Shown here: positions 9,452 through 62,775 of the stretch, one piece after another
Numbering within the stretch: position 1 is the first letter of the stretch
Layout: each line of letters begins with the position of its first letter
Source of the DNA: Raillietiella orientalis
Taxonomy: Eukaryota
Assembly (NCBI GenBank): GCA_036172245.1
Contig: JAYWIR010000113.1
Coordinates: 62,001 to 126,000 of the forward strand
DNA length: 64,000 nt
Direction of reading: 5' to 3'
Made by a program: the position numbers and the translations under genes
The notes under the pieces: model-generated
What the model saw: the letters and a program-made list of their open reading frames with translations, nothing else
What the model was told of the DNA's origin: nothing
Databases searched by the model: none

Positions 9452-9481
9452 AATAAACGCCCCGGCGTGACCGGGTGAGAA
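9452..9481 (+). terminator. 3'-terminal AATAAA + CCCGG-CGTGA-CCGGG hairpin (representative copy)
   Basis: Recurs, intact or decayed, at all 11 element 3' ends. Confidence 0.8.
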
Positions 9482-11402
9482 ATCTCTTGCGCTTGTTCTG
9501 CAGAGATCACGTGGATCTCCTGCAGCAGCGCAAGGTCTTAGGACTCCAGAAGGGCGGCCATGTCTCGTCTCCTGCCGGCGTCTGTCATGCCGTTCACGTT
9601 CCAAACGGCGATGCGCAGACGACGGCGGGAGGAGATTCCCGGCATTACTGCTGGGAAGATTGAGGTGTGGGGGAGCCCTCCTCTTGCGAGGCGGGCGGGA
9701 TGTCCATGGGAGTTTCGGCCTTCTCAGGCACCTGAGGCACCTGTTTGGCCTCCACCCCCTCCATCCCCTCCGTGTCCGCGGGTGGGAGTCTCTCGGGCGA
9801 CGGGTCCCGAGAGTTTCCCACGCTCATGGCACCCTCGCTTGCGGAAGCCATCTCTTCCCCTTCGACGGGGGAGACGAGCTTCCTTGGCTTTGTGGACTTA
9901 CGTCCAGCCTTCTTGCGCGGTGCCGTGGAAACGGAGGCTGTGCTTCCGGCCTCCACCTCAGGGTCGGAAGTGGGGAACTCCTGAGGGGAGGCCGGGCGCC
10001 TTACGGCCTTCTTGCCAGCCTTGGAGGGTTCTGGCTGCAACGAGGCTGCCAGCTCCTCCGCGGCTCGCGCGAAGGCTACGTCATCGATGGTGGTGTCGAT
10101 GACGGACGCCGCCGCCGGCTCGCTCCCCTCGCTGTTGACAGAGTCAACAGAGGGGTTGTCGTCGGTAGCGGCGAGTTCTTTTTCGCAGCGGTCGGGAATA
10201 CGCTCGACGACAACGCTGCATTCTTTAATTTGCTCGCTTGCCTGCTGTTTTTTCTGGGGGTACGCGAGCTTTTTCTCCATCCTCTTCTCCTTCTTTGATT
10301 CTTTGGCCGTAGCCACCTGCCACCCAGGCAACCGGCTAGTTCCCTCGACTTGTACGGCGTTGTTCGCTGAGGTCTCGGGTGCGGCCTGAGTCTTGGGCGC
10401 GGGTGACACAGCCTTCGCAGCAGCTTTCGCCGCCAGCCTTTTCTGCAGAAGCCGGGCGCGTTTTTTAAGGTTTCTCTTGGAAACCACCCGCACTGCTGCT
10501 TTTGGACACACCTCCCTCGTGTGACCCATTGTGCCTCATACTTGGCAGTGAACATTGGGACACCTCTTATTGATGTGGCCCGACGTATTGCAGAAGCCAC
10601 AGTATTTCGGCTTCCCCACATACCAGAGGTCGACGGTTTCGCCTTCGACCACCAGTTTGTGGGGAAGGGTGCAGCCCTCCCAAACGGTCACGCGCGCAGC
10701 AGTGACGCCGTGTTGCAGCCCCGTGTAATCCACGAAAGGATTAACTTTCGTCCACTGCGCGTGCACCGTTCAGTATTCCCCAAACGCGGCGCGAACCTGT
10801 TCCTTGCGCATCCGCGCGGTAACACCTAACAGGTAGACCACCATGCTGCGGTCCGCCGTAATAGGGAGTAGCCTGCGCGTCCTTATCACCACGGGGGTTT
10901 TAAGCAGTCGTTGGGCCAGCTCTGCCTGTTTGCAGATGACCTCAACGTACTGACCCCCGCTGCGGATGTTCATAGCGCTGAGCTATTCTTCTTTCACATC
11001 GAGAGCGCGCATGCCCTTCGAAAAGGCGCGCGCGCTCTCCAAGGAATGAAGGTTGCTTACCTTGTAGAACAATGAGGGGTTGTATCCCTCCTCTACATAG
11101 TGCGACAATTGCGCCGCGGCTGAAGGGGATGGCGCCGACACAACGGCGCACCACGCCCGTGCTGCAGCGGGGACCGATTCTGTGGGGGAGGATGCCCCCA
11201 CCTCCATCGCCTCTGGGGGCGACGTTGCCCCCACCCCCTAACTCTTTATCGCCTCTGGAGGCGGCGTAGCCGCTTCCCCCTGGCCATCCCTGGTTGTCTC
11301 GTCAGGCATCGCTGCCTGAGCGACCACCGAACCACACGACTTTTGCACTGGGGGAGACTTCCTGGCACGAGGATCACCGAGGAAACACGTCCACACTAGA
11401 GC
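9482..11402 (-). mobile_element. LINE C, 5' part (5' UTR, degenerate ORF1 11309-9645, start of EN)
   Basis: GGACGTG at 11392-11386, knuckle CGFCNTSGHINKRC, TAATG junction at 9647-9643, then WNVNG. Confidence 0.92.
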
Positions 11403-13605
11403 ACGCAAGTCGTTTTACTGGGTAAACAAGAAGCTGCTCTTGGAGCGTATGGAACGCCTTGGGTTCGCGGCGTAACTCCTTCTGGATTTGCGTGCGCGCG
11501 GGCGCCACGCGCTAACCTGCATAACTTTGAGCGGCTGCAGCGTGTACGGTATTCCCGTGCGTAGAAGCATCCGACAAGGGGTCAGCTTTAGCCCGTTCCT
11601 CTTTAGCATCTTTTTTGAGTTGGTGCTGAGAGCGTACAGGCTCACCCTGTGTCGCTTGCCATGCTCTTCCCCGGGTACGCCTGCCGTAGCCGCCTACGAT
11701 GATGACCTGCTTCTTCTGCGCCCCATGGCCACCCCGGCGTCCAGTGTCGAGGTTTTCTTGGACCTGATTCTTCGGGGAGCGGGTGTGAGCGTGAAGAGAG
11801 AGAAGAGCGTGGTCGTTCCTGTGGGTGCGTTGTGGGAGGGGCAGTCCGACTGAATCCGCCTGGGTATCCCCACGGGCCGCTACTTTAAGTACCTTGGCGT
11901 TCTGTTGGGCGCTGTCGGCGAAGCCGAAGCGTGGGCGTACTGTCTCCAGGGAGCAGAGTTGGCCATCAGCCCGTTCATTCATGGCAAGTTTAGCTTGCAG
12001 GAACGGGCGACTATTTGGAACAACTTTGTGGCCCCCCTCCTTCGTCCCCTGTTTTTTGTTTTGGACCCCCCCTATGCGGCAAAACAGCGGGCTAAACGCC
12101 TGCTCAGGAACGCTCTCTGGGGTGCGCCGAGATCCAGGATCGGCCTAAAAGATTTGGTTGCTCCGCGTCGGGATGCTGGTTTAGGTATCCTGACAATGGA
12201 GCGAATCGGTCTGCAGGTGCAGTTCCGATAGCTGGGCACTGAGTGCCCAGCTATGGACATCCCCCCTGTGTGTGCCAGCACGCATGCTCCTGCGGAGATG
12301 CGCCTGCAGCGGAGGATTTTTATCGGTTTTGCCGGGCACCCAATTCAGGAAGCGGGGTTTCGGGTTTCCATCGCGGCAGTTGACCGCACTTCTGGAAGTT
12401 CACTCGTGGATCTCCTGCCGCCCAATGAACTCTCAATCTTGGCGGCAGGAATCTGTTGAATCCTTAGCGGCGTTCCAAGGAATACGCTTTTAAGGTCTTC
12501 ACCCCCTAGGCCAATTTTTTCCACGATCCTTGGAAGAAGTACTGCAGGAGGAGGTGAAGTTTTCTACCCTGGCTCATACGCCTCTTGCCGCAGCGCTGTA
12601 TGCCCTCAGGGCGAGAAAGGACAGTTGCCAGCCGGCAAGGTGGGAGTTTTCCTGCACGATAGCGGGAAGAACCAAACTCCTTGGCACCTGGAAGACAAGT
12701 GAGTTGGCGGACGCCGCCACTCCTCGTGTTACTGCAAAGGGACTCCTCCGGTGGGCAGAAGAACTTGCTGTCACCCCCGAAGAACTTGTAGTCCCTCCAC
12801 AGTGTATGGACAGTTCGCTGCTCCCCCTTGCTTGGAAACAAGCCGTGCTGCTTTTCGTTCACTGGGGTTTTCAGTGCAACGAGCGTTGGCATCGTGACTC
12901 CGGGGGACTTGCGTCTGCGAACTGCGTTCGGTGCGGATCGACGGAGTCGATTCCGCACCTACTTCTGGACTGCGGTGTCCTACAAGGACTGTGGCGTAGG
13001 CTGGCAACAGCACTATTGCATCCCGTGGACACCGCAAGAGACTTGCTGCGACGATTCTTCACGCCGAGCGGGCTTTCACTAAGCGCAAGGATTGCAACCA
13101 TCGGTTGCATACGCGCGATAGTTTCCGTCCGCAAGGCGCTGATAATCAACAAGCAGCACCAAGGGGTGATCGGCAAGGCAACTTTCTATATGAAAGGAGC
13201 CGCCAGATGGCCTTAATTACCGAGGATACGAAAAGGGATCTCGCTAGCATACGACGACGGTTTACAGACGCTAGCCAACAGCGAACCCGGTGAACCTTTT
13301 CCTTCGCTTCCTTCAAATGTTTTTTTTTTTTCCCTACATCCGCCCTATTAGGCTCCGGAACATTTTATGTGCTCTCTATTTGAATCCTCGTAAGTACGGT
13401 GCTTCACCTAAGACCCGTTACCCCTCCCTCCAGATTTTCATTTTTGTTTGTTATCCCTCTACTCCCTCAGTGTTGTTGGAAGCGGTTTGTTAACCATGCC
13501 TGTGTGTCGGTAACTACTCTTTGCTTCTTGTCGTTAATTTGGTTAAAGACATCGTCTTTGATTGTTTTATTTTCAATAAACGTCCCGGCGTGACCGGGTA
13601 AAAAA
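11403..13605 (+). mobile_element. LINE D, 3' part (mid-RT to 3' end), degenerate, B-like lineage
   Basis: IRQGVSFSP, YDDD, CVRCGSTESIPHLLLDC, T-rich UTR, and terminus AATAAACGTCCCGGCGTGACCGGGTAAAAAA. Confidence 0.92.
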
Positions 13606-16955: not shown

Positions 16956-19794
16956 CGCCGGGTTTGAACGTCAAGCCTAGCAATCCAAGTCGGCCAGCTT
17001 GCTGGACGACCAGGGTCGGGAATGTTCTTCCCCGGCGTCGGTACGTCATCTCGTGCGCAGTTCTTATTCCTATCTTTACGCCATGGAGCCCCCGGATCGA
17101 GACGCCTCTAGGCGCTTGCTTCCGGATGGCGCCCGGAAATAGGAAAGGAGGAGTCGTTAAGCCTCGATGAGCCTTTTACCACCGGCGAAATTCTCGCCGG
17201 TATCAAAAGGCTTAAGAGGCGGAAAGCTCCAGGGGAAGACTACTTGTCCGCGGAGTTCTATCAGAGCTTCGCGGAAGAGCTGGCACCCCTGCTGCTTAGG
17301 CTGACAAGGCTGATCCGAGACGAAGGCGATGTTCCCGCCTCGTTTTGGTCAGCCAGAGTAAGGCTCCTTCCGAAAGGGGAAGACTTCAGAGATTTAAAGA
17401 ACTGCCGTCCAATCACGATCCTGAATACGAACGCCAAGTTGGTTGCCGGGCAAAGGGCTTAGCGTCTGGGGCAGGTGGCAGAATCCATAATTAGCCCGGA
17501 GCAGAAATATGCTGTTTCCGGGCGAACTATGGATGCCAACCACTTCTTCGCAAGCACATGTTCGCACCTGCAGAGAAGACATAAGAAAGGGATAGGGAAA
17601 GTCGGCAACCCCACATTGGGGCCGCCATTTGGGCTAAGAAGAGACCCCGTTCGGGGAAGGGGGCAGTAGCTCTCGCAGTCGATCTTCACAAGGCATTTGA
17701 CTGTGAAGACCAGGAACTCCTCTTGGAGCTGCTGGGTCGCATCAGCTTCCCACCCTCCCTGATTTCCTACCTGCGCTCTTGCTGGCGGAATGCGATGATT
17801 ACCGTCTGTTTCAGTGGACAGAAGGTGTATGGCGTGCCATGGCGGCGGGGCATAAGACAGGGCGATAGCCTCAGCCCCCTGCTCTTTAGCACCTACTTTG
17901 ATTTGGTGCTGAGAGCGTAGAGGGTGACTTTGGCCCCCTTGCCGAGCTCGTGCCCCGGCACGCCCGCCGTAGCAGCGTACGCCGACGATCTTCTGCTCTT
18001 GTTGCCAATGTCCACCCCGGCAAAGGCGGTCGGAGACTTCTTCGATCTGCTCAGCCGCGGGACCGGACTGCAGGTTAACAGGGCGAGGTCGTCGGTTGTG
18101 CCAATAGGTGCGGCGTGGGCAGGGCAGCAGGACTGGGTCCGTCTGGGGATCCGCACTGCGAGGTGCTTCAAGTACCTTGGTGTGCCGTTGAAGGAATACT
18201 CCCCTGAAAAGCGTGGTCGAGCTGCCTCCAAAAAGTCGAGACGGCGATCGGCCCGTTCCTCGAAGGCAAGTTTCACTAATCAGAACGGGCCGCGGTTTGG
18301 AACGCCTTCGCGGCCCCCATCCTCCGTTCCTCGCTTTCTGTTTGTCCCCCACGGTGGAAACCAAATAGAAGACAAAGGACCTCCTCCGTTTCGCTCTCTG
18401 GGGCAAGGGGAGGCCCCGAGTCCCTCTGAAGGACTTGTGCGCTCCTCGTCGCGACGGCAGACTTATCCTCCTGACGCTGGAGCGCGTGGAGGAACTTCTG
18501 TGATGGCGTACCCTCGCCATCGCAGCGAAGATGTGGAGCACCATGTGGTGCGTTCCGGCTCGCCTCCTCGCCAGTCGTGTGTCCCGGTGCGAGGGACTCG
18601 CTTCTTTTCTTCTGTGCCCGGGCCGGAAGATCAGAAGTGCTGGCCTACAGCTCGGGCGCATGGCATCGTTGGCCATGGAGAACAGCAGGATGGTTTGCTG
18701 CCTTGCCAACTCCTCCGCCTGGCTGGAGGAAAATATTGGAACGTGGGCAGTGGTGAACCAGAGAAGCCACGTAACGTGGAATCGTCTCCAATGCGGCCAT
18801 TACGCCCGCTGCACTCTGAGGAATCTCTTGCAGAGTCCAGCTAGAAGCACGTGGGCAGAGACAACCTGCCTGGCTACGGCGCTGCCCTTGCTGAGGAGGG
18901 CGCTTCACAGCAGTCGGACGCCAAGGTGGCAAGTCTCCTGCTGCATCGAGGGACGGGAGAAGTTGATAAGCGGCTGGACAACAGAAGAACTGGCAGACGC
19001 CACGACCGCGAGCTTCCAGCCGGGAGGGTTTTTAAGATGGGGCGAGCTGCTCGTCATACCCAGGAATGAACTGAAGTGGCCCCCGGTGATGAAGTAATCC
19101 AGGATCCTTCCCCTCAAGTGGCAAGTGTCGGCGTTGCTCCTGTTGCACTGGGGTCTACCCTGCAACTCGCGCCGCTTCCACTGGACGAGGGGAGCTGTGG
19201 ATCCTGCGTGTGGCAGGTGCAAGGAGCTGGAGTCGCTCCCCCACCTGATTGTGTATCGTGCTGCCCTCCGACCCCTCTGGGAACGGTTCGGGATGACCCT
19301 CGGGATCCCTATGGGCAGTGCATTCAGAGACGTTCTCCGGCTCCTCTTCTTGAAGGACGTCCTGCTGCCAGCGGCAGCCCTCGCAGCCCTGTGCTGCGTC
19401 CGAGGCATCGTTGCGGCCTGGAGCAACGCCAGAAACGAAGATGTGGACGAAAACGGGAGGGACGTCATCCAGTATGCAGTGCACTTCTTGCGGATAGCTG
19501 CTCGATGTCCTCATCTGGTATATATACGGAGGGACCTCGAGGGCTTCCTTCGAAGGATGGGCCCTCCTCACAGTGACCAGTAATCCCTACCCTGCCCTCC
19601 AAACTCTTTTTTTTCTTTTTTATTTCTTTATTTTTCTTTTGGTTTTCTCCCCTCATCCCCTTTCGCTGTCGGGGAATGCCACGCCGGGCTGCGTCCCGGT
19701 GTCCCGACAGGTCATGTGCTTACGGTCGTGGTGGGGCCTTCTACCACGCATGTAGTGTTTATTAATAAACCCCCCAAGCGTACCTGGATGATAA
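16956..19794 (+). mobile_element. LINE F, 3' part (linker to 3' end), degenerate, close relative of I
   Basis: Colinear with the reverse complement of 27363-30190, with YADD and CGRCKELESLPH. AATAAA at 19764. Confidence 0.92.
19666..19748 (+). other. Structured 3' UTR RNA element: bulged stem with CUGCGU loop plus a second hairpin (representative copy)
   Basis: Pairings CTGTCGGG/CCCGACAG, ACGCCGGG/CCCGGTGT and CGTGGTGG/CTACCACG, with compensatory changes in other copies. Confidence 0.7.
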
Positions 19795-20399
19795 CCCCAA
19801 ATCCCCGGGGCGAGCGGTGCAAGCGGAACTCCTCGGAAAACTCGCGGACCGAGGCCTTAAATAGGTTGCAATCCTTCAGATTGCGGAGGGTGACGCCTCT
19901 CATTAATACGCAAGGGGGTTCCTTTGCACCTGAGCCGCGTCCAGCGCGCAGGCAGACGGCACGCGCTAAATAGGGGGTCCTTGTCGCGCGGTTACACCTA
20001 GAATATCAACCATAAATGGTCAGACAGTGCCGACGCAACTTTGCCCCGTTTGCCGACCCGTGATCACAGGTCGACGTCCAGGAAGACGTGTTAGATGCTG
20101 CTGACCATTTGCGGGAGATCCCCTAACAAGTTGCGCGTGCGCATGGCGACGCACAACTCGTTAGCCGCCCGTTCCTGTGCGAGTGGCTCACCTGATAGCT
20201 TGCGGAAACTGTGGTCTTCCGCTATCAGGTGAGCCATGAGCACGTTCGCTTCCACCAATCAGTCGCGCTTCAGGGTTTCTAGGAACGCCTTACGTTCCGG
20301 GTACCTGCTAGTACCGCTTGGAGCTTACACATTTGTTACGAAGAAATCGATCGTATCGGACCACCTGAGAATCAGCTGGCCGGGACTTGCGACGGCGCT
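19795..20399 (-). mobile_element. LINE G, old EN/linker fragment
   Basis: The minus strand reads GQLILRWSDTIDFFVTNV...HVFLDVDL...SDH...SVREFSEEFRLHRSPRGFG with many stops. Confidence 0.85.
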
Positions 20400-20491
20400 C
20401 TGAGAGGGTGGACGTGCTTTTGTGGTGCTCCGCGTTTTTCTCGCGAGTGTTTTCGGAGTTTTCAGGGTTGAGCGGTTGTTCCTGGGCAGGG
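20400..20491 (+). promoter_or_regulatory. 5' UTR / putative internal promoter with GGACGTG at +11 (representative copy)
   Basis: The motif recurs at 10 element 5' ends. Promoter function is inferred. Confidence 0.55.
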
Positions 20492-22159
20492 ATGCCCGAG
20501 GACGCCGCAAAGACGGCGGAGGGGGGCGAGCGAGCCTCGTCCCCCCAGCCCATGGATGTGGGGGCCATCTCCCCCACGGAATCGTCCCCCGCCCCGGCGA
20601 GGGCTTGGAGCGCGGTGGTGGCGGCGCCTGCGCCGCCCCCCGCACAGGAACAGCGGGCCTACATGGCCGACGGGTATAACCCGGCCTTGTTATACAAGGT
20701 AGGTGGCCTGTACTCCCCCGCGGTTTTGCGGTCGTTCGCGGCCGAGTTTAAAAAATTAAAAGTCCCGGAGGACGAAGTCCTCGGACTTTCGGTATGGAGT
20801 GGCGGGCAGCTGGTTGAGCTGAACTGCAAGTCTGCAGGGATGGCTCAGCAGCTGCTCCGCCTGCCGGTCACTGTGAACGGGAGAAGGATCTTCCCGTTCA
20901 CGGCCGACAATTCGATCGTGGTGCATTTGACCGGCATAACGATGCGCATGGCAAAGAGCGCCGTGCGAGAATCGTTAGAGAAGTTCGGGACCGTTCACGC
21001 GTTGTGGGCAAAACCTAATGTCCTTGGTTATACCAGGGCATTTAGTGGTTATGCCGCTGCGCGCGTGACGGTACGTGCCGAGGGTGGGCTACCCCACAGA
21101 CTGCAGGTCGGGGAGGAGGAGATCGACCTGTGGTATGTGGGGAAACCCGTATACTGCGGCTTTTGCCAGGTGTCGGGGCACCTGAAGAAGAAATGCCCCA
21201 ACATCGTGTGCTTGGGCTGTGGGGAGAAGGGGCACATCAGGCGGATGTGCCCGAACCGAAAAAAATCCGTTCCGTCAGGCGCGAGAAAGGATGAGACGCC
21301 GAAGGAAAAGGACCGAAGCCAACAACTGGCAGAACCCCGCCCTGCCGACCAACCCGCTACTCAGGCATCCACCAGCGAACAACCAGCTGGAGAAAGCGCC
21401 GAGAACGAGGAAGGTTGGCAAAAGGTAGAAAGGAAGAAGCCCCAGAAGAAGGAGGCAAAAAAGATAAACAAGTTGGCGCCGAAAAAGCAGAAACCGGTCG
21501 TCCGCGCTTGTACGGTGAAGATCGAACGCGTCTCGATCGCCAGAGCCGTGAAGAAAGTAACGGTAAAGGCGATCGATACCGTCGATCCTGAGCCGGTCGT
21601 GCCCGCAGTGACGTCACCATCAGCTGACGACAATGCCGTTCCGGCATTGCCAGCGAAGGAAGTCTGCGCGCCGATCGATGAAGCCGCCCCTGTCGCGCCT
21701 GCGCAAAGCGTCGGTGCGGAAAGCGAGGAGGCGGCGCGCATAACGGACGCGACCTTCGCGCAGGCCGCGGAAGAGCTGGCAGCCATGTTACGGCGGCCTG
21801 CCAAGGCCGAGAAGAAGGCCTTGAGACGACCGGCAACGGTGAAGGGCCCGGAAAATTCCGAGTCCGAAACCGAAGCCGGTTGTTCTACTTCCGCAGCCGT
21901 GCCGAAGAGGAAGGCTGGCAAGAAGACCGGTTGCCCGAGACGGGTCGCCCCTCCGCAGGTGGAGGAGGCCATGTCCTCGGGCACGAAGGAGGAGGCAATG
22001 TGCGTCGCGCCACGCGACCCCTCTCCGATCCGTGTCTCGAAAGCCAGCCCCATGGAAGTCGCTGTGGACGACGTGCTCCCGTGTGAGCAGCCGACCGTCG
22101 TCACGGCCGCCAACAAGCCGCCTCCCGCAAGGGAGGAGGCCGCCTCCACCCCACAATAA
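20492..22159 (+). CDS. A2 ORF1, 555 aa nucleic-acid-binding protein (RRM-like region, 2 CX2CX4HX4C, long K/E/P/A-rich tail)
   Basis: ATG CCC GAG GAC matches the MP(E/D) start of C, I, N and Q. The upstream TTG start in the ORF track lies outside the element. Confidence 0.92.
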   Translation: MPEDAAKTAEGGERASSPQPMDVGAISPTESSPAPARAWSAVVAAPAPPPAQEQRAYMADGYNPALLYKVGGLYSPAVLRSFAAEFKKLKVPEDEVLGLSVWSGGQLVELNCKSAGMAQQLLRLPVTVNGRRIFPFTADNSIVVHLTGITMRMAKSAVRESLEKFGTVHALWAKPNVLGYTRAFSGYAAARVTVRAEGGLPHRLQVGEEEIDLWYVGKPVYCGFCQVSGHLKKKCPNIVCLGCGEKGHIRRMCPNRKKSVPSGARKDETPKEKDRSQQLAEPRPADQPATQASTSEQPAGESAENEEGWQKVERKKPQKKEAKKINKLAPKKQKPVVRACTVKIERVSIARAVKKVTVKAIDTVDPEPVVPAVTSPSADDNAVPALPAKEVCAPIDEAAPVAPAQSVGAESEEAARITDATFAQAAEELAAMLRRPAKAEKKALRRPATVKGPENSESETEAGCSTSAAVPKRKAGKKTGCPRRVAPPQVEEAMSSGTKEEAMCVAPRDPSPIRVSKASPMEVAVDDVLPCEQPTVVTAANKPPPAREEAASTPQ

Positions 22160-22167
22160 ACGCATCA

Positions 22168-25100
22168 GTGCGTGGGCTCGCCTTCTGCCGCCGCTTGCGC
22201 ATCACCTGTTGGAATGTCAACGGGTTGCGCGACGGCGGAAAGAGGCGAGATGTAGCCGCCATACTGCGAGACTTCGACCTGGTGCTCCTGCAAGAGACGC
22301 ACGTACTCCGACCGGGAGATGTCCAGGAAATCGAAAGAATCGCGGGAGGGCGGCTACTGTGGAGGAACGGAACGGACAACTCCTGCGGAGTGGCCTTTCT
22401 GCTAAAGCCAACCGTCGACAACTCACTGCGGAGTGCACGGCTCGACGGGGATGGTCGAGTTGGGCAGCTTGTGTTCAAGTGGTCCGACTCGATCGACCTC
22501 GTAGTCACGAACCTGTACGCTCCGGTGAGCAGCCACAGGGCCGAGGAACGCACTGCGTTCTTCGAAACCTTGCGGCGAGACTGGTTGGCCGAAGAAGGCG
22601 TGCGAAGGGCGCACCTCATTGCGGGCGATTTCAATCTCCGCCTGCTGGCAGGTGCGCCCAGCGGACGAGCACAGCTGGTCAACGAGTTGTGCGCAGCCAT
22701 GCATGCGCGCAACTTGTTGGCCGGTGATGCCGGGAGAGATCGGAACATCGACCACATGTTCCTCGACAACCACCTGTGCACGCGGGTGGGAACTCGAGGA
22801 ACGCTCCCGGCAGAGCTGTCCGACCATCCACGGCTCGTGCTCGAGTTACATCCGCGCAATAAGGGCCCTACCCTGAAAACATGGCGCCTGCCAGGGGATT
22901 GGTTGCGCCTCGCAGGAGCGGCGGAACATCTACGCTGTTTCCTGCGAGGATTCCAGCTTCAGACGCTCGCGGACTGGGACGAAATGAAGTGCTCAGTCCG
23001 TGAGTTTTGCGACCAGTTTCCCCTGGAACGTCTTCCGCCGGGCTTCGGTGAGGGTGTCAGGAACGAGCGGGCGTACCTCCAGGCGCGCCTTTATTCCCGG
23101 CGTCCCGACATCCGTCGCCTGGCTGAATTCAAGGATGAGGCGGAGAGGCAGGCCTGGCAGTCAGGCTCGGCCTGTTTGCTGGATCATCAGGGCCAAGAAC
23201 GCTCCAGCCCAGCCCAGGTAAGCCGCATCGTGCAAGAGTTTTATTCCTCCTTGTACGCGCCACTAACACCTGAGCGCCATTTCGCGCAGCGCCTGCTGCC
23301 GGATGGTGCTCCCGCGCTCAAGGAGGAGGACCGTTCCAGATTGGCGGAACCGTTCACGATGGCGGAGATCATCTCCGCCATCAACAGGCTAAAGAGAAGG
23401 AAGGCACCAGGGGAGGACGGCCTGCCCGCGGAGTTTTACCATCGCTTCGCGCCAGAGCTGGCCCCCCTGGTGCTCAGGTTAAGTGCGCTGATCCGCGAAC
23501 ACGGCGAAGTTCCCGCCTCGTTCCGGTCAGCTAAAGTACGTCTCCTGCCGAAGTCAGGAGACTTACGCAACATTGGACACTGGCGTCCCATCACAGTAGT
23601 AAATGCGGACGCAAAGTTGTATGCCAAGTTGTGTGCTCAGCGTTTGGGGGGGGTGGCCGCTTCCGTGGTGAGTCCCGAGCAGACCTATGCTGTTCCCGGA
23701 CGAACCATGGAGGCCAACCTGCTCCTCGCCAGCTCATGGTGGCAGTTGCGACAACGCGTTGCACAGGACGGTCAAGGGAGCCTCGCGCCCCCCTCTGACC
23801 AAGAAGATCGTGCAGAGGGTGGGATGGACTCGGCGGGAGCCTTTGCTGTCGCGGTCGATTTGCACAAAGCATTCGACTGCGTCGACCAGGATCTCCTTCT
23901 GGAGCTCCTGGAACGAATGGGATTCCCGTCCGTGCTCCAGTCCTACCTGCGCTCCTGCTGGCGCAACGCGTTGATTAACATTGTTTTCAGCGGCCGGCAC
24001 GTGTATGGCGTGCCAGTGCGCCGCGGCATCCGGCAGGGTGACAGCCTGAGCCCCTTGCTCTTCAGCATCTACTTCGAGTTGGTGCTGAGGGCATACAGGG
24101 TAACTCTGGCAACCCTGCCGAGCTCGTGTGCCGGCACGCCTGCCGTGTCGGCCTATGCAAACGATCTTCTGCTGCTGCTTCCCGGGTCCACCCCGGCGAG
24201 TGCACTCGAGGACTTCTTCGAGTTGCTGCGCCGCGGGACGGGCCTGGAGGTGAACAGGGCGAAGTCGTCCATGGTCTTCGTCGGTTCGGCGTGGGCTGGA
24301 CGGTCGGACTGGATCCGCTTGGGGATCCCCACGGGCAGGTGCTTTAAGTACCTCGGCGTACCGTTGGGGGACTTCTGCGCAGCAGAAGCCTGGTCCGACC
24401 GTCTCCAAAAGGCAGCGTTGGCGATCGGTCCGTTCCAAGAAGGCAAGTTTTACTTGCAGGAACGGGCCGCGGTGTGGAACGCGTTTGCGGCTCCCCTCCT
24501 TCGCCCCCTACTTTTTGTTTGCCCCGCCCCTTATTTTATTCGGAAACGAGCAGCGGGCCTCCTGAGGACAGTCCTTTGGGGCAAAGGGAGGTCCCGTGTG
24601 AGGCTCAAAGACTTGTGCGCTCCACGTAAGGACGGTGGACTTGGCGTACTTACGCTGGAGCGCATGGAACTACAACTTCGATTCAGGACTCTCGCCCTTG
24701 CGGCAGAATTGTGGGACACGCCTTGGTGCGTTCCAGCACGCCTCCTGGCCCAACGAGCCTGCGGAATCGGCGGACTTTTGTCGTTTCTGGCTGCGCGCGT
24801 CTGCATAAAACCATACTGTGGCTCTATGCTGCGACGCATCTTTGTTGCGGTTCGGGAGAACGCCTGGATCTCCTGCCTCCCAGGGAACTACTCCGCCTGG
24901 TTGCACGAGTCAGTCTCCAGCTGGGTAAAGATCCAATTTCCGGCGGGCACAAGAAACACTTGTATGAAAAGGCACGCCCGCTGGACGCTGCAGGAGATCG
25001 TGCAGTCCCACGACAAGCTTCTGTGGGCCTTGATAACCCCCCTCGACCCAGTGCTGCCCTTCCTTGTGAATGCCAGGGACAGTAGCGAGCAGGGGAAATG

Positions 25101-25713
25101 GACCGTGTCCTGCACTATAGGCGGCAGGACACAATCGATAAAGGCGAGGATATCTCGGCAGCTAGCTGACGCTGCGACGCCGAGTGTCCCGCCCAACGGA
25201 ATTCGACGCTGGGGCGAGCTACTCGGACTATCTCCGGAGGAGATGAAGTGGCCCCCAGCGTCCTGGAACAGTGCATCCCTCCCCCTAAAATGGCAGGATG
25301 TGGCGTTGCTTGTGGTACTCTGGGGATTACCATTTAAAGCACGCCTGCACCACACCACCCGGGGGGCTGTGGATTCCAATTGTGACCGGTGTGGGGAAAA
25401 AGAAACATTCCCCCACCTTCTCCTTGAGTGTAGCGCCCTCCGCCCTTTGTGGGATCGTCTCGCGGCGATCCTGGACTTGCGCGGATGCGGCCCAAAGGAC
25501 GTTTTCAGGCGCCTCTTCTGTAGTGACGCCTTGTCCCCGCCCGCTAGTGTAGCAGTCCTCTGCTGCATCAGAGGAATAGTTGCGGTTTGGAACGCCCCAG
25601 AAGAAGGCGTCAGCCAACAGGCAACGCCTTACACTGGACTCGCCTTTTCGCGCGCAGTGGCTGCAAGTGGCGCCACTTGGGCGCTGAAAGGACTCAGCTT
25701 GTGCGGATCCTGA
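22168..25713 (+). CDS. A2 ORF2, 1181 aa APE endonuclease-reverse transcriptase-zinc finger; YADD changed to YAND; probable frameshift near 25645
   Basis: WNVNG, LQETH, GVAF, YAP, GDFN, IDH, SDH; DLHKAFD, GIRQGDSLSP, YAND, KYLG; CDRCGEKETFPHLLLEC. Confidence 0.95.
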   Translation: MRGLAFCRRLRITCWNVNGLRDGGKRRDVAAILRDFDLVLLQETHVLRPGDVQEIERIAGGRLLWRNGTDNSCGVAFLLKPTVDNSLRSARLDGDGRVGQLVFKWSDSIDLVVTNLYAPVSSHRAEERTAFFETLRRDWLAEEGVRRAHLIAGDFNLRLLAGAPSGRAQLVNELCAAMHARNLLAGDAGRDRNIDHMFLDNHLCTRVGTRGTLPAELSDHPRLVLELHPRNKGPTLKTWRLPGDWLRLAGAAEHLRCFLRGFQLQTLADWDEMKCSVREFCDQFPLERLPPGFGEGVRNERAYLQARLYSRRPDIRRLAEFKDEAERQAWQSGSACLLDHQGQERSSPAQVSRIVQEFYSSLYAPLTPERHFAQRLLPDGAPALKEEDRSRLAEPFTMAEIISAINRLKRRKAPGEDGLPAEFYHRFAPELAPLVLRLSALIREHGEVPASFRSAKVRLLPKSGDLRNIGHWRPITVVNADAKLYAKLCAQRLGGVAASVVSPEQTYAVPGRTMEANLLLASSWWQLRQRVAQDGQGSLAPPSDQEDRAEGGMDSAGAFAVAVDLHKAFDCVDQDLLLELLERMGFPSVLQSYLRSCWRNALINIVFSGRHVYGVPVRRGIRQGDSLSPLLFSIYFELVLRAYRVTLATLPSSCAGTPAVSAYANDLLLLLPGSTPASALEDFFELLRRGTGLEVNRAKSSMVFVGSAWAGRSDWIRLGIPTGRCFKYLGVPLGDFCAAEAWSDRLQKAALAIGPFQEGKFYLQERAAVWNAFAAPLLRPLLFVCPAPYFIRKRAAGLLRTVLWGKGRSRVRLKDLCAPRKDGGLGVLTLERMELQLRFRTLALAAELWDTPWCVPARLLAQRACGIGGLLSFLAARVCIKPYCGSMLRRIFVAVRENAWISCLPGNYSAWLHESVSSWVKIQFPAGTRNTCMKRHARWTLQEIVQSHDKLLWALITPLDPVLPFLVNARDSSEQGKWTVSCTIGGRTQSIKARISRQLADAATPSVPPNGIRRWGELLGLSPEEMKWPPASWNSASLPLKWQDVALLVVLWGLPFKARLHHTTRGAVDSNCDRCGEKETFPHLLLECSALRPLWDRLAAILDLRGCGPKDVFRRLFCSDALSPPASVAVLCCIRGIVAVWNAPEEGVSQQATPYTGLAFSRAVAASGATWALKGLSLCGS

Positions 25714-25979
25714 ATAGGATCTAGAGGACCTCTCCACGCGCACCGTGATCCCTTCCTCGCCCTCCCACCCCTACAACATTTGTTCCCCCCCACATTTGAA
25801 CTTTTTGTTTCTTTTTGTTTTTCTTTATTTCCCATCCCCGCGCATCGGAAGGACCTCTCCGGCACGGAGCCGGTAACCAGCAAGCTGTTTTGGAGTGGTG
25901 AACCTTCGGGTTCGCCACGCGACATTTTTCTGTAATTTTATTTCTATGAAATAAATTCCCCGCCACATCCGGGTGTGAA

Positions 25980-27362: not shown

Positions 27363-30300
27363 TTGCCACCCGGGTACGCCCGGGGCGTTTATTTTTAAAA
27401 ACTCTACACTTGCGGTACCAAGGACTTATGCACGGGACCTACCGGGACACCGATACGCAGTCCGGCGTGGCACTCCCCGGCAGCGAAAGGGGATGGGGAA
27501 AAACAAAAATAAAAACAAAAAGGCAAATAAAAAAGTGAGGTTGGGGGGCAGGGAAGGGATCACTGTTCGCTGAGAGGAGGGCCCATCCGTTGAAGGAAGC
27601 CCTCGAGGTCCATCCGTAGATTCCCCATTTGGGGCCATCCAGCAGCTCTTCGCAAGAAGCGTTGGGCATATGGGATGACATCACTCGCGTGTTGACCCAC
27701 TCCTTCCTTGTTGGTGTCGCTCAATGCCGCCACGATGCCTCGGACGCAGCACAAGGCTGCAAGGGCTGCGGCTGGCTGCAGGGCGTCCTTCACGAAGAGG
27801 GGCCGAAGAACGTCTCTAGGGGAACTTCCCGTTGGGAGACCGAGGATCGTCCCAAACCGTTTTCAAAAAGGACGAAGGGCAGCACAGTCCAGAATAAGGT
27901 GGAAGAGCGATTCCCGCTCTCCGCACCTGACACAAGCTGGATCCACAACTCCTCTTGTCCAGTGAGAGCGGCGTGTGTTGCAGGGTAAACCCCAATGCAA
28001 CAACAGCAACGCCGTCTCTTTCTACTTAAGGGGCAGGATCCTGGATTCCTGAAGAAGCGGGGGCCACTTCAGCACATCCATAGGGATGGCCAGAAGCTCG
28101 CCCCATCTTCTTAGTCCTCGCAACTGGACGCTCGGGGTCGTGGCGTCTGCCAGTTCTCCTGTTGTCCATCCGCTGATCAACTATTCGCGTCCCTCGATGC
28201 AGCAGGAGACTTGCCACCTTGGCGTCCGGATGCTGTGCAGTGCCTCCTCAGGAAGGGCAGCGCCGTAGCTAGGCAGGTCGTCCCTGCCCACGTGCATCTT
28301 GCTGCACCCTCCAGGAGATTCCGCAGCGTGCAGCGGACGTAGGGGCTGCATCGGAGACGATTCCACGTCTCGTGGCTTCTCTGGTGAACCACTGCCCACG
28401 TTCCAATATTCTCCTCCAGCCAGGCGGGTTAGTTGGCGGGGCAGCAAACCATCCAGCTGTTCTCCTTGGCCAATGTTGCCATGCGCCCGAGCAGTAGGCC
28501 GCATCTTCGCATCTTCCGGCCACAGCTGAGAAGAAAAGACGCGAGTCCATCGCACCGGGACACGCGGCTGGCCAGGAGGCAGGCCGGAGTGCACCAAGGG
28601 GTGCACCACATCTTCGCTGCGATGGCGAGGGTTCGCCACCGCAGCTGCTTCTCCAGTCGCTCCAGCGTCAGGAGGCCAAGACCGCCGTCCCGACGCGGAG
28701 CGCACAAGTCCTTCAGTGGGACTCGGGGCCTCCCCTTGCCCCAAAGGGCGATACGGAGGAGGTCCTTCGTCCTCTTCTTGGATTCCACGGTGGGGGGGCA
28801 AACAAAAAGCAAGGGGCGGAGGATGGGGGCCGCGGAGGCGTTCCAAACCGCGGCCCGTTCCGGCAAGTGAAACTTGCCTTCCAGGAACGGGCCGATCGCC
28901 GTCTCGACTTTTTGGAGGCAGCTGGACCACGCTTCCTCAGGGGAGTAGTCCCCCAACGGCACACCAAGGTACTTGAAGCACTTCGCCGTGGGGATCCCCA
29001 GACGGACCCAGTCCTGCTGCCCTGCCCACGCCGCACCTATTGGCACAACCGACGACTTCACCCTGTAAACCTGCAGTCCGGTCCCGCGGCTGAGCAGATC
29101 GAAGAAGTCTTCGACCGCCTTCGCCGGGGTGGACATTGGCAACAAGAGCAGAAGATAGTCGGCGTACGCTGCTACGGCGGGCGTGCCGGGGCACGAGCTC
29201 GGCAAGGGGGCCAAAGTCACCATGTACGCTCTAAGCACCAAATCAAAGTAGGTGCTAAAAAGCAGGGGGCTTTGGCTATCGCCCTACCTTATGCACCGCC
29301 GCACCGGCACGCCATACACCTTCTGTCCACTGAAACAGACGGTAATCATCGCATTCCGCTAGCAAGAGCGCAGGTAGGAAATCAGGGAGGTTGGGAAGCC
29401 CATGCGACCCAGGAGCTCCAAGAGGAGTTCCTGGTCTACACAGTCGAACGCCTTGTGGAGAACGACTGCGAGTGCTAGGGCCCGCTTCCCTGCCCGGGGG
29501 TCCCTTCCCAGCCCGGCTGGCGGCCCCAATGTGGGGTTGCCGACTTTCCCTATCCCTTTCTTTTCTCTTCTCTGAAGGCGCACCCATGTGCTTGCGAAGA
29601 AGAGGTTGGCATCCATACTTCGCCCGGGAACAGCATAACTCTGCTCCGGGCTAATTTCGGATTCTGCCACCTGCCCCAGACGCGAAGCCCATAGCCCTGC
29701 GATCAACTTGGCGTCCGTAGTCACGATCGTGATCGGACGCCAGTTCTTTAAATCCCTGAGGTCTCCCCCTTTCGGAAGGAGCCTCACTCTGGCTGACCTA
29801 AACGAGGCGGGAACATCGCCTTCGTCTCGGATCAGCCTGATCAACTAAAGCAGCAGGGGTGCCAGCTCTTCCGCAAAGCTCTGAAAGAACTCCGCGGGCA
29901 AGCCGTCTTCCCCTGGAGCTTTACGCCTCTTGAGCTTTTTGATAACGGCGAGAATTTCGCCGGTGGTAAAAGGCTCGTCGAGGCATTCCATCTCCTTTTC
30001 CCCTATTGCCGGGGCGCCATCCGAAAGCAAGTGCGGACAGGCGTCTCGATGCGGGGGCTCCCTGGCGTAAAGGGAGGAATAGAAACTCCGCACGAGATGC
30101 CGTACCGACGCCGGCGACGAACATTACCGGTCCTGGTCGTCCAGAAAGCTGGCCGACCCGGATTGCCAGGCTTGGCGTTCGGCTTCGGCGCGGTACTCGG
30201 CCAAGCGACGGACATTAGGGGTTCTTTCGTACCTACGAGCCTGTAAATAGGCCCGATGGTGGCGAGCACCCTCGCCTAATCCGGGGTGCAGGCGAACCAG

Positions 30301-35349: not shown

Positions 35350-35642
35350 AAAAGTTTGAATAATAAATGTCCCTGAATATCCTGTTGACAAACTTTGGCT
35401 GCAGCCGAGCATTAATGGCCAGCATCATCGAGCAGACAAGCCGCTCCGGACTGCCAAACCCGGCTCTCGACCCTGGTCTTGTAGTCCGCCAGACGCCGCA
35501 CGTCCGGGCATCGGGAGAAGGTAAGCGCCTTCAGATAGGATCTGCTGTTCGCGACACCCTTTTTGAAGCCGCGGGGTAGCAAACGCAAGGGGAACCGGCA
35601 GCAGAACTCGCGGACTGCCCTTTTCAGATCGTCCCAGTCCTC
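35350..35642 (-). mobile_element. LINE J part 2 (linker), 3'-truncated
   Basis: EDWDDLKRAVREFCCRFPL...WQSGAACLLD continues PGFAIRELE at 41185. Confidence 0.88.
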
Positions 35643-52049: not shown

Positions 52050-52661
52050 CACACAAGTAAGATTGAATCCAAACTGTGCCAGGTGTGGGGTACGGGAATC
52101 CCTTCGGAACTTCATAGTGGACTGTGTTGACTTCCGTTCTCTTTGGAAAGGTTGCAGTAGTACCATAGGGATCGTGGAAGGTAGCCCTCCCAGAGACGTT
52201 ACTTGGCTTTTCTTCTTGCGGGACTCCCTGTAGCCAGCCATCGTGGTAGCAGCGCTCAGCTGCATCCGCGTTATTTTAGCCGCTTGGAGTAAAAGCCGCC
52301 GAAGCAGAAGATGTTAACGGAAGTGTTGTTTTGGAGTATGCAGCTTGCTTACTGCGAATAGCACACTGATGGCCTTACTTGAGAAATCTGCACAAATACC
52401 TCGTGGGCATCCTGCAAAGGATGGTTACTCCACGCAGCGGACAGTGATCCCTTCCTGACCGTCCAAAGAACTATGGTTTTGTGTTTTCAGTTTCCTTTAT
52501 TTTTATTTTTATTTTTCCCATTCCTCTCCGCTCACGTGGAGTGTCAAGTCGGTCTTCGCACCGTCCATACGGCAGCTCCGTCTCGCTTTTGTCCGTGACG
52601 GGCCGTTGTATCGCAAGTACGGAAGGTTTATAATAAACGTTCCGGATTCACCAGGTGAAAA
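52050..52661 (+). mobile_element. LINE O, 3'-terminal fragment (zinc finger + 3' UTR), I/E-like lineage; right edge of the large nest
   Basis: NCARCGVRESL, T-rich UTR, and terminus AATAAACGTTCCGGATTCACCAGGTGAAAA. Confidence 0.88.
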
Positions 52662-56399: not shown

Positions 56400-58289
56400 T
56401 GCTGCCACCTATTTCGAACTGCTGCTGAGAGCATACAGGCTGACATTGTCTGCCCTACCAAGCTCGTGCCCCGGTACGCTGGACATGTCGGCGTATGCTG
56501 CTGATCTTCTGCTCCTGCTAGGCATGTCAGATTCGGCTTTGGCAGTAAAGAATTCCTTCGACTTGCTGAACCGCGGAACAGGATTACGGGTGAACAGGAC
56601 GAATCCGCCGCTGGCTACGGTTGGTGAAACGTGGGCAGGATGATCTTATTGGATCCGACTGGGGATACCCACGAAGAGGTACTTGAAGTACTTCGGCGTT
56701 CTATTAAATGACTTCTGTTAGTCAGAAGCCTGATCAGGTCGTCTCCAGAAAGTGGAGTTGGCGATCGGCCCGTTCCTGGAAGACAAGTTCCACTTGCAGC
56801 AATGGACAGCGGTGTGGAACGCGTTTCTGGTTTCCTTAAATCGCCCCCTTCTTCTTGTTTGGCCGTAACCCATAAGATGAGAAAGAGAACAAAGAACCTC
56901 CTGGGCATCGTTCTGTAGGGCGGCGGGAGGCCTTTTTTGCTTCTGGAGGATTTGTAAGCTTCCCGTCGGGACGGAGATTTCAGCGTCCTTACGCAAGATC
57001 CCGTAACGAAACAGCAGCGATGGCGCAGCCTCGCTATCGCAGCAAAAATATGTAGCACTCCTTAGTGCGTTCCGATCCACCTCATCGCTAGACGTGTGTC
57101 CGGGACTGATGGACTAGCATCTCTTCTGTGCTCCAGCCGGAAAACAAGATGCGGCCTTCTCCGGGACGCATCATCATCCTCGCAAACGAGAACGGGTAAA
57201 AAGACTGTAGCCGCGCCAACTCCAGCGCATGAATGGAAGAAACAGTTGGCTCGTGGGCTGAGTTAAAGCAGCCTAGTGAAGAATCTTGCAATTGCCTTTG
57301 CCCGGCATCTACATCGACTGTGCGCTACGGAACATGATCGAGGATCCTTCCAGAAGCACGTGGAAGGAGACAACCCTACTGACCACGGCGCTGCCCTTCC
57401 TGAGAATGGCGCTTCATGACGGCCGAAAACCCAGGAGTGAAATTATCTGCCGGATAGCGGGCAAGGAGAATGGGTTAAATGGGTGGACCATGATGGAACT
57501 GGCTGACGTCGCGACTCCAAGCGTTCTCTAGCTCGGAATCCAGAGATGAACGAGCTGCTTGGCCTTTTACTGGATGATCTAAAGTGGCCTGTGTGATTTA
57601 GACACGCAACCAACCTCCCTCTCAAGTTGCAGGAAACAGCTCTGCTTTTGTTGCACTGGGGGCTTCCCTGATACGCGCGCCGCCACCACTGGACGTTGAG
57701 GAACCTGGGAGAGAACTGTACAGTGTGCGGGGAGAAGGAATCCTTCCTTCACCTGTTTCTGTACTGCGCTGTTCTCTGGACCCTGTCGGAACGTTTTGCT
57801 ACGACCCTCCGGATACCGGCAGTACCCGCACAGACGCTGTGAGACTCCACTTCGTGCGAGACGCCCTGCAACCAGCATCAACCCTGGCAGCGCTCTACTG
57901 ACTCTGAGGGAGTGTGGCTGGGTGATGAGCGTTTAACAGAGAAAGAAGAGCTGTGGACACCATCGATCACGCTGGTCGCAACCTGCGAATCGCGATCGGC
58001 TGGTCCCATCTGGGAGCCATGACGAGAAAACTCGAGGGCATCCTGGAAAACATAGTCTCTCCCCCCAGCGGGCTGTGATCGCTTCTTGACTCTCCAAATA
58101 GTTTCTTTTTGTTTGTTTCATTTATTTCACTTTTTGTTTTACCCCCTAGCCCCTCCGCTGCCAAGAAGAGTCAGGCCGGTCTGTGGACCGGCTTTCTAAC
58201 ACGTCCCATGAAATATTGGACGAAGCGCGGCCTATTACCGCAAATGTACAGTGTTTATAAATAAACGGTCCAGCGTGACTAAGTGAGAA
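56400..58289 (+). mobile_element. LINE P, 5'-truncated, old (RT end to 3' end)
   Basis: TYFELLLRAY, LPSSCPGT..YAAD, zinc-finger remnant, AATAAA at 58260. The left boundary is approximate. Confidence 0.85.
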
Positions 58290-60885: not shown

Positions 60886-60889
60886 CGCC

Positions 60890-61004
60890 AACTTGTCTTC
60901 CTTTCGGTAAGCCAGAGTGATGCTCCTTTCGAAAAGGAGAGATCTCTGGAAAGTGAACATCTGGCGTCCGATCACGATCGTGAATACGGACGCCAAGTTG
61001 ATAG
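60890..61004 (+). mobile_element. Short RT fragment (WRPITIVNTDAKLI) fused to the EN of R
   Basis: First 30 aa of ORF 60917-61177. Confidence 0.75.
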
Positions 61005-62775
61005 TTGCCACACGGTCAAGCAGGGGCGTTTATCATGAATTCTCTATAATTCGTGTTACGAGACCTTACAACGGCCCAACCAACAGGACCTGCCAAGTTG
61101 ACAGTACGCACACCGGCGCGACACTCCTCGGCAGCAGAGGGGGATGGGAGGAAAAACCAAAAAAAAATAAAACATAAAAAACAAAAGATGCTGGAGGGCC
61201 GGGAAAGGATCACGGTCCACTGGAAAAGGGGTCCATCCTTTTGAGAATTTTCGCGAGGTCCGTCCGTATAATTCCAAGGTGGGACCATCTGGTCGCAATC
61301 CGCAGGTAGCGGACTGCAAGTACGACGGCATCCCTGTCTTGGCTCGGTCTCCTCACGTCGCTCCAGCACGTCACTATCCCGGTGAAACAGCAAAGTGCAG
61401 CCAGTGCAGCAGCTGGTCGCAGGGCATCCTGCACGAACAGAAGCCGAAAAACGCCTCTGGATTGGCTGCCCTCCTGGATCCAAAGGGAGGCACGAAGACG
61501 CTCGCACAGGGGTCGGAGGGCAGCACAATCAGCAAGGAGGTGGGAGAGCGTTTCCCGCTCCCCACACCTTATGCAGTCCGGACTTACTGGACCCCTGGTT
61601 TAGTGGTGCTGGCGTGCGTTCCACGGTAGACCCCAATGCGACAACAGGAGCGTCGACTCCTGCCACTTCAGAGGGAGGATCGACGAACCAACGAATACCG
61701 GGGACCACTTCAGTCCATCCATCGGTGTGCCGAGCAGGTCGCCCCATCTCAAGAGTCCTCTCGACTGGACGCTTGGGGTACTAACGTTTGCCAGTTTGTC
61801 CATGGACCAGACGCTCATCAACCTTTCTCTGCCTGCAATACGGCAAAATATTTGCCACCTAGGATTGAGGTTGCTGGAGAGCGCCCTCCTAAGGAAGAAC
61901 AACGCCGTAGCTAGAAGTGTTGTCTCTGCATACGTACTTCTTACGGGAAACTAGATGATATTTCGCAGATTGCAGCAAGAGTAGGCTCCGTGTTGCAGGC
62001 ATTTCCACTTATCTTGATTGCTGCCATTAATCTTTGGTCACGTGCAAGTGGTCTCCTAAAGCCATGCGGAAAAGTTGGCGGGGCTGCATACCATTTCGCT
62101 GTTTTCCTTATCCAGAGTTGCCACCCATCCCAAGAGAAGTCCGCATCTCTTGAGCTTCGAGCTAGAGCACAGAAGATCACAAGCGAGACCTTCCGTTCCA
62201 GATACACAGCTGCAAAGAAGTCGGGACAAACGCAACATTGGGTGCCCCATAACATTGCTGCGATGGCCAGGGTGTGCCATCGTAGCTGAATCTCTCCTCG
62301 CTCCAACGTCAAGAGACCAATACCGTCATCACAACGTGGAGCACACAAGTCCTTCAAGAAGACACGGGGCCTCCCTCTTACCCTAAGGAACAAGTCTCCG
62401 GAGGTCCTTCGTCAGCTTCCTCAACTTCCGAGGGACGAAGCATACAAAAAGCAGGGTGCGAAGTATGGAAGTCGCGTAAGCGTTCCACACTGCGGCCCGT
62501 TCCGGAAGAAGAAACTTGGCTTACAGGAACGGGCCGATCGACGTTTCCACTTTTCGGATGCAGCCGGACCACACATACGAAGGGGAATTGTCCCCAAACG
62601 GCACACCAAGGTACTTCAAGCACCTCGCCGTGGGAATCCCTAAACGGACCCAGTCCTGCTGCCGAGCCCACGCCACGCCTACTGTCACCATCGACTACTT
62701 CGTACTGTTAACCGGCAGTCCAGTCCCGCGGCTAAGTAGATCGAAAAAATCTCCAAGCGCCTCTGTGGGGTGGAC
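61005..62775 (-). mobile_element. LINE S, 3' part, degenerate, I-like lineage
   Basis: Colinear with 27363-29130. Terminus GATAAACGCCCCTGCTTGACCGTGTGGCAA. Confidence 0.9.

Follow-up and report, generated by a model that had tools for sequence, protein, structure and literature searches.

Introduction

How the reverse transcriptase (RT) of a long interspersed element (LINE) chooses the first RNA base to copy is known in detail for human L1, which uses poly(A) pairing, and for R2, which uses a structured 3' untranslated region (UTR). The same question is raised by a stretch of 64,000 nucleotides from Raillietiella orientalis (contig JAYWIR010000113.1, contig positions 62001-126000, in a genome of 210 Mb; hereafter the window), which is a nest of related LINEs whose copies are designated here by letters. 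The original prediction on this sequence was that the elements end, tail-less, at a defined nucleotide positioned by a hairpin. An animal-type actin gene was identified as well. In this study, the element end was found to be fixed, at a distance measured from a terminal stem; its last base is encoded by the element, A:T priming is not used, and the UTR upstream is structured. Such an end suggests that a folded RNA signal tells the copying enzyme where to start. The present LINEs unite the protein architecture of L1 with an R2-like 3' end, and the single-base precision of that end is visible in thousands of copies.

A 3' module of fixed layout in the window

The module consists of AATAAA, three nucleotides, a CCCGG...CCGGG inverted repeat and a 6-nt tail of the form TNNNA(A/T). 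Twelve 3' ends in the window carry it; junctions are counted from the end of the hexamer.

9452..9481, plus strand: B; AATAAA, three nucleotides, intact 5-bp hairpin at 9461-9475, TGAGAA
13575..13604, plus strand: D; intact hairpin at 13584-13598, TAAAAA
16926..16955, plus strand: E; decayed 5' arm, end TGGCAT (AT-ending lineage)
19764..19794, plus strand: F; decayed 16-nt hairpin, junction +25
25950..25979, plus strand: A2; one stem mismatch, TGTGAA, junction +24
27363..27393, minus strand: I; intact 6-bp stem, 4-nt loop, TGGCAA, junction +25
35362..35391, plus strand: J; decayed stem, TGACAA
41155..41184, plus strand: K; intact hairpin, TAAAAA
49997..50026, plus strand: M; strongly decayed, junction +24 by empty site
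52632..52661, plus strand: O; decayed, no independent fix of the junction
58260..58289, plus strand: P; decayed, junction +24
61005..61034, minus strand: S; GATAAA variant, decayed stem, TGGCAA, junction +24

The lineages listed in the original prediction were recovered as given, with J at 35362 in addition and with GATAAA as the hexamer of S, the hairpins of B and D lie at the coordinates that it gave, and those of K and I have the form that it described. The stem is intact in these four copies only and decayed in the remaining window ends. Nine of the ends fit the 30-nt pattern with at most three mismatches, compared with none in 100 shuffles. When set against homologous empty sites in sibling LINEs, eight copies (B, D, E, A2, J, M, P and S) have their junction at +24 and the two with a 16-nt hairpin (F and I) at +25, while K fits either position; the predicted distance of 24-25 nt was thereby borne out in 11 window ends, O having no empty site for comparison. 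The empty sites contain no hairpin, and the possibility that the hairpin belongs to the target instead of the element was rejected. Moreover, no tandem repeat was found at any window 3' end, and Rfam gave no match within the window.

B is inserted antisense within the endonuclease region of a sibling open reading frame 2 (ORF2), D in sense at the GDFN codons of a sibling and I antisense at the PxGFG codons of a sibling. The target-site duplication (TSD) of B has 3 mismatches in 17 positions, and the flank pairs of B and of I each resemble differently diverged hosts; because of these mismatches and unlike flanks, the TSDs of B and I alone are weak evidence for the junction. The halves that differ by several bases are 3524-3540 and 9482-9498 for B, and 27347-27362 and 32930-32946 for I. 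These flanks suggest that copies at the same site in different hosts may have recombined; the two flanks of A2 likewise come from different hosts.

Genome-wide copies and the absence of a tail

The pattern AATAAA-N3-CCCGG-N5/6-CCGGG-TNNNA has 2,387 copies in the genome and none in the reversed control. With a 5- or 6-nt loop, 2,155 of these copies end in TNNNAA and 232 in TNNNA followed by a base other than A. Exact 5+5+5 hairpins number 2,038 and 6+4+6 hairpins 208, and both reversed controls gave 0. When ends were chosen by the C-terminus of ORF2 and not by the stem, 30 of 38 had an exact AATAAA with the module, 20 of these with an intact stem, and 3 more had a one-letter change in the hexamer; this set came from three contiguous stretches, two of which had been picked because they hold exact matches. 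The 69 variants at position 2 of the hexamer, mostly AGTAAA, are spread over the lineages and look like decay, so ATTAAA was dismissed as a selected alternative signal.

Runs of nine A's near the hairpin (up to 30 nt away) are confined to 5 ends out of at least 2,387. In one of them (L122) the run lies inside the TSD and is target sequence; L125 is the only end with an A-run directly after the element end, and no TSD was found there. Furthermore, the A-run from stem+5 (the fifth base after the stem) is at most four in 148 of 149 distinct ends, and none of the 27 youngest of these, which have a relative at 95% identity or more, has a tail. The predicted absence of a long poly(A) or repeat tail therefore extends to the youngest copies, and the vertebrate L1 arrangement of AATAAA with a copied poly(A) is not found here.

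Many copies are short, which is explicable by 5' truncation of LINEs. L062 and L063 (G000:C4) have identical flanks and no ORF2 match within 1.5 kb upstream; they are a segmental duplicate or possibly a non-autonomous element. In metagenome contigs, eight exact module matches were found, none with a convincing ORF match (one at E 0.007).

Position of the element end and its last base

A TSD search that did not assume the position of the junction gave 53 repeats scoring at least 11 among 151 ends, compared with 13 in controls. A TSD was considered validated when its 5' copy lay at the homology boundary, and 31 of 76 candidates scoring at least 9 passed. All 31 are compatible with an element end at stem+6: 14 of them pin this position exactly, and the other 17 overlap by 1 nt, 2 of these with a first base that is mismatched. 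TSD length ranged from 9 to 19 bp and was 12-14 bp in 21 of the 31. In three exactly pinned copies with a 16-nt hairpin (L105, L111, L112), the end lies 25 nt after AATAAA. Because stem+6 holds for both 15- and 16-nt hairpins, the ruler is the end of the stem and not AATAAA, hence the distance of 24 or 25. A boundary-first search over 300 nt gave 26 repeats from 95 boundaries, 22 of them starting at +7 or earlier; the four later-starting ones were inspected, and no convincing 3' transduction was found among the 26.

The last base was resolved by the AT-ending lineage, which includes window copy E and in which many copies end TGGCAT. In seven pinned copies with a terminal T, the 5' TSD is preceded by A, G or C, and in L142 a terminal G is likewise absent from the target, so that 8 of 14 pinned copies end in a T or G that the target does not provide. 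Since the T of this lineage comes neither from the target nor from poly(A), the last base is template-encoded and no tail A was copied, and the RNA consequently reaches at least +6. The terminal AA of other copies was also considered as the first bases of a poly(A) tail; this fails for the AT lineage and may apply to the AA lineages. These results uphold the prediction of a 3' end at a defined nucleotide.

Tandem re-insertions exactly at the 3' junction of an earlier copy were observed at L023/L024, L094, L174, L186 and G000:C1:8044952-8046076, and they include an AT-lineage copy beside an AA-lineage copy.

Targets

The base that follows 80 AA-ending ends is C in 38, A in 26, T in 14 and G in 2. 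Targets that mostly start with C indicate that L1-type poly(A):T priming is not used, and the T-rich nick that pairs with poly(A) in relaxed L1 elements is not found. In the AT lineage, 16 TSDs gave the target CC(C/T)(T/C) followed, across the nick, by CGCC. Among 50 ends of this lineage, C occupies +1 in 48 and +4 in 47, and +2 is variable (G 28, T 9, A 9, C 4); base -1 is T in 9 and C in 5 of the 16. The specificity is loose, and dispersed copies show only a loose 8-bp consensus. The LINEs have a target preference, a Tx1 feature: in sibling LINEs the lineages have their own sites, and elsewhere a short consensus is seen.

In the window and in G000:C1:1-40000 and C1:8020001-8060000, lineages repeatedly hit their own position in sibling ORFs, mostly antisense. 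These positions lie near ORF2 amino acids (aa) 80-90, at GDFN (sense), at aa 294, PxGFG, aa 378, DAKL and HKAFD, and at one site in ORF1. Part of this sibling targeting may be a moderate endonuclease preference that meets good matches.

Two hairpins in the 3' UTR

The arms of the terminal hairpin remain complementary even though the loop differs between lineages, and the stem of the 16-nt variant is longer by a sixth pair; this is suggestive of folding. The original prediction had named missing covariation of the stem beforehand as evidence against it, and formally that is what was found: genome-wide and over all five pairs, 111 copies are changed on both sides and 61 of them are Watson-Crick, with no covariation. 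By pair (1 to 5), the both-side changes number 25, 13, 35, 28 and 10, of which 17, 8, 18, 14 and 4 are Watson-Crick as counted by hand. For pairs 1 and 3, the marginals predict 16.4 and 17.8 Watson-Crick cases, so there is no excess. The double changes are mostly transitions scattered over the lineages, and no lineage has a fixed variant. Because the terminal stem is conserved in sequence, the missing covariation neither proves nor refutes folding.

The original prediction also described the end as conserved although the rest of the UTR had diverged. The conservation of the end stands, whereas the last ~300 nt of the UTR can still be aligned, at a mean column identity of 49%, and include another conserved hairpin, ~75-120 nt upstream, whose loop is CUGCGN. 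This upstream hairpin was located in five copies of the window as follows.

9338..9355, plus strand: B upstream hairpin, CTGCGT loop
16831..16848, plus strand: E upstream hairpin, CTGCGT loop
19683..19700, plus strand: F upstream hairpin, CTGCGT loop
27449..27466, minus strand: I upstream hairpin, CTGCGT loop
41058..41075, plus strand: K upstream hairpin, loop variant

Anchored on the loop in 35 of 45 representatives, the closing pair of this hairpin is T-A in 12, C-G in 9 and G-C in 5, which makes 26 Watson-Crick pairs compared with 11.8 after shuffling. Five representatives with rearranged or non-homologous upstream sequence were removed by eye, and RNAalifold on the remaining 40 predicted both hairpins, with a closing pair of U-A in 14, C-G in 13 and G-C in 5. 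The upstream hairpin has 45 both-side changes compared with 16.8 in shuffled alignments (reached in 0 of 500 shuffles), and controls slid along the alignment gave 9-23. The terminal stem is invariant in the 40-sequence alignment through the selection of copies. A 3' stem-loop with compensatory changes, as expected of a stringent LINE, is thus found in the upstream hairpin, and the invariant terminal one is uninformative on this point.

Many representatives also have a predicted third hairpin, which is lineage-specific and lies between the CUGCGN hairpin and AATAAA, and an outer stem, with 70.6% of cells paired, encloses the CUGCGN hairpin. A hairpin that would mask AATAAA by means of an upstream U-tract was put down to composition (mean helix 5.0 compared with 3.7-3.8 in controls, the base that follows AATAAA not covarying with its upstream partner).

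Proteins and element architecture

The best-kept copy is A2, which encodes a gag-like ORF1 and an ORF2 and is 96.9% identical to copy A across 5.6 kb.

20369..22159, plus strand: A2 ORF1, stop-to-stop frame, gag-like, zinc knuckle
22087..25713, plus strand: A2 ORF2, stop-to-stop frame, APE endonuclease, RT and zf-RVT, short linker between endonuclease and RT (EN-RT linker)

DNA identity between sister lineages is ~65-80%, and relatives in the protein database are distant, at 22-32% identity among the matches listed; these include a zebrafish pol-like protein (BAC82609) which we take to belong to the Tx1 group. An ORF1 and an ORF2 with an N-terminal APE domain, RT and a C-terminal cysteine motif make up the architecture of the L1 clade (L1 and Tx1), and TSDs and frequent 5' truncation are present as in that clade. 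Among solved structures, human L1 ORF2p is the top match by sequence and fold, far above R2; the A2 ORF2 model has a predicted local distance difference test score of 79.5 and matches human L1 ORF2p in Foldseek at E 1.5e-46.

The EN-RT linker measures 198-201 aa in all 8 local translations having both anchors (13 matches) and 237-246 aa in all 28 homologues having both anchors (37 examined), so that the local linker is ~40 aa shorter. According to a profile alignment to human ORF2p, the missing part is that of the tower helices. The human tower is described as needed for retrotransposition and dispensable for RT activity (PMC10830420), and the EN-RT region of ZfL2 as binding the tail hairpin (PMC4176376). 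A connection between the short linker and the tail-less end is our guess. Among the residues of ORF2 that contact poly(A), the aromatic at the W365 position is kept and the others are not conserved, as counted back from LxDxxG in a part where the alignment is weak.

In A2 (22087-25713) and other local ORF2s, the tower helices are replaced by a short segment with PxGFG, itself an insertion target. The ORF2 frame of A2 is open, yet its RT active-site motif is altered, and A2, though young-looking, is probably inactive. The 5' end of copy A (window ~3300-3335) shows a 15-bp TSD and, after it, 19 extra bases matching the ORF1 site that holds the 3' end of A2, which looks like a short 5' transduction from a donor locus. 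Moreover, an inverted duplication with a self-match of 78% lies inside an ORF2 fragment at window 50135-50271.

Proposed mechanism and alternative explanations

The reading that we consider probable from these sequences is that ORF2p binds a two-hairpin 3' UTR, which would fix the start of reverse transcription without pairing. The endonuclease has a short cut site that differs between lineages, and the cut results in a duplication of 12-14 bp. ORF2p would hold on to the 3' UTR by two hairpins, the covarying CUGCGN one and the invariant terminal CCCGG/CCGGG one, the sixth base after the stem would be placed in the active site, and synthesis of complementary DNA would start at stem+6 with little or no pairing between primer and template, like R2Bm. 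AATAAA would end and stabilise the transcript at or beyond stem+6, and any sequence after this base, be it poly(A) or a short piece of flank, would be bypassed. In R2Bm, two stem-loops and a short single-stranded tail are described as positioning the template without primer pairing (PMC11194090), and in human ORF2p, unpairing of a stem-loop is reported to scatter the start sites (PMC10830416).

Several observations weigh against this reading. The terminal stem does not covary, and nothing in its folding energy stands out (z < -2 in 2 of 12 window ends, with other bases paired in the best fold of B), so that it may be recognised by its sequence. The shuffle control for the upstream covariation ignores relatedness. 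The TSD sample covers only copies with an intact stem and was deliberately weighted towards the AT-ending lineage. Validation failed in 45 of the 76 candidates, and two unvalidated copies deviate, L139 with two extra bases and L148, which possibly ends at +4. In addition, the similarity of copies correlates weakly with that of their flanks (rho 0.15, p 0.03-0.045; four tests, uncorrected), which fits read-through pairing.

The fixed end could instead be a property of the RNA, which would itself stop at stem+6 after a cut near the site defined by AATAAA, the tail never being added or being trimmed back to a protein-protected hairpin boundary, so that the RT starts at the last base. The usual cleavage distance is 24-25 nt after AATAAA, where the element end lies, and the geometry recalls that of histone mRNA ends. 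An encoded last base that tracks the stem agrees with an RNA end there, the 1-nt target overlap in 17 of 31 TSDs would suit priming from it, and the DNA-level results all fit it as well as they fit the internal start. The downstream contexts are very different, however, which would make host cleavage at a single base unlikely unless trimming follows, and the overlap in the AT lineage may only reflect its pyrimidine-rich target; we regard this explanation as unlikely. A transcript that runs on into a target-like donor flank is also conceivable, such a model having been put forward to explain why the 3' junctions of R1 in Drosophila are precise (PMC2718515): the flank RNA would pair with the nicked strand and set the junction, and the hairpins would only bind protein. 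Since the RNA extends to +6 or beyond, it could contain some bases of the flank; lineages reuse identical sites in sibling LINEs, and both the conserved C's at +1 and +4 of the AT lineage and the weak copy-flank correlation point the same way. Nevertheless, the target is conserved also beyond the nick, in CC(C/T)(T/C), which RNA pairing cannot produce; base +2 varies, copies 98-99% identical often differ in flank (e.g. L166/L182 and L195/L130), and no carried-over flank was found among the copies, whereas R1 sometimes carries flank. Pairing of read-through RNA therefore appears improbable. The internal start, the RNA end and the read-through are inseparable from DNA alone.

The remaining explanation, that A-tails were inserted and later decayed or were lost in assembly, or that the inverted repeat serves as a double-stranded DNA binding site and has nothing to do with priming, would be in keeping with a stem that is invariant without covariation, as for a dyad DNA site, and with the decay of many window copies. 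The youngest copies are tail-less, the TSDs directly abut the +6 base, other long A/T runs were assembled in the same loci, and a DNA site would not explain a junction that tracks the end of the stem. This explanation is already contradicted by the TSD data and is judged very improbable.

If priming through the two hairpins works without pairing, the endonuclease is the sole determinant of the target. This would account for the large number of lineage-specific targets and would be of interest for tail-less, precise insertion tools. As a tentative and rather doubtful extension, these LINEs may represent an L1-related, APE-type ORF2p without poly(A) priming, in which an internal, pairing-free start 6 nt past the terminal hairpin, with poly(A) ignored, goes together with a shortened tower and with endonucleases freed for unrelated, often GC-rich targets, including each other's coding motifs. 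The 30-nt module, with its natural loop-length variants and a natural non-A end, makes the shift between stringent and relaxed priming in L1-clade enzymes directly testable.

Comparison with known systems

Recognition of a 3' stem-loop is a known principle, of which the present LINEs show a new variant in an L1/Tx1-like group. The original prediction called such an end unusual for this group; the principle itself has precedents in stringent LINEs and in R2, and the L1 clade is known to include some families that lack a 3' repeat, namely 9 of the 233 plant and 5 of the 15 algal L1 families in Table 1 of one report (PMC3472496). In a literature search that covered neither Repbase nor most subscription papers, no account of the present family or of an AATAAA-hairpin-6-nt end was found.

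The stringent L2 LINEs (eel UnaL2, zebrafish ZfL2-1 and ZfL2-2) likewise have a conserved 3' stem-loop near the end (PMC4176376, PMC3747384). The EN-RT linker of ZfL2 is described as binding the stem generally and the loop specifically, whereas here the terminal stem is common and the loops are lineage-specific. UnaL2 is reported to end in TGTAA repeats, likely for slippage; the present elements belong to another clade and have a fixed 6-nt tail with AATAAA directly before the hairpin. A 3' tandem repeat such as (TGTAA)n is absent, and the TSD abuts stem+6. Within the L1 clade, the monocot LINE1-1_ZM group and Chlamydomonas L1-1_CR have a 3' hairpin with compensatory changes and were inferred to be stringent (PMC3472496). 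L1-1_CR ends in poly(A), unlike the present elements; the monocot hairpin combines a variable stem with a fixed loop, the reverse of the terminal hairpin here, so that only the upstream hairpin is alike, and the main-text description of the monocot elements gives no single-base ruler (PMC3472496).

The closest working analogue is R2Bm, with two stem-loops, a short single-stranded 3' tail and pairing-free priming (PMC11194090). R2 has a restriction-like endonuclease and a single target in ribosomal DNA and is apparently co-transcribed with 28S (PMC2718515), whereas the present LINEs have an APE endonuclease, ORF1 and AATAAA. Neither a restriction-like endonuclease nor a 28S ribosomal DNA target was found here, and the APE domain is present. 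R1 is an APE-type, sequence-specific element. That of Drosophila likewise has a precise 3' junction, with a TSD of 14 bp; its target is 28S ribosomal DNA, and the precision is ascribed to pairing of read-through flank with occasional carry-over (PMC2718515), which was not found among the present copies. The targets here are sibling LINEs and dispersed sites, as distinct from R1, and short read-through pairing may still play a part.

Vertebrate L1 and human ORF2p share the domain order, the TSDs and an AATAAA near the end (PMC5381506, PMC10830416, PMC10830420). The vertebrate L1s studied in those reports all end in AATAAA and poly(A), and human ORF2p needs ~20 A's, whereas here there is no tail and the tower is ~40 aa shorter. 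The Tx1 group (Tx1L, Keno, Kibi, Koshi and Tx1-Mar) likewise has target preference, with other transposons included among the targets (PMC4494074). SART1 is reported to keep a poly(A) tail that it needs for accuracy (PMC7265360). In conclusion, the present elements are L1/Tx1-like LINEs with a structured 3' end of the stringent type, and not members of R2, R1 or L2.

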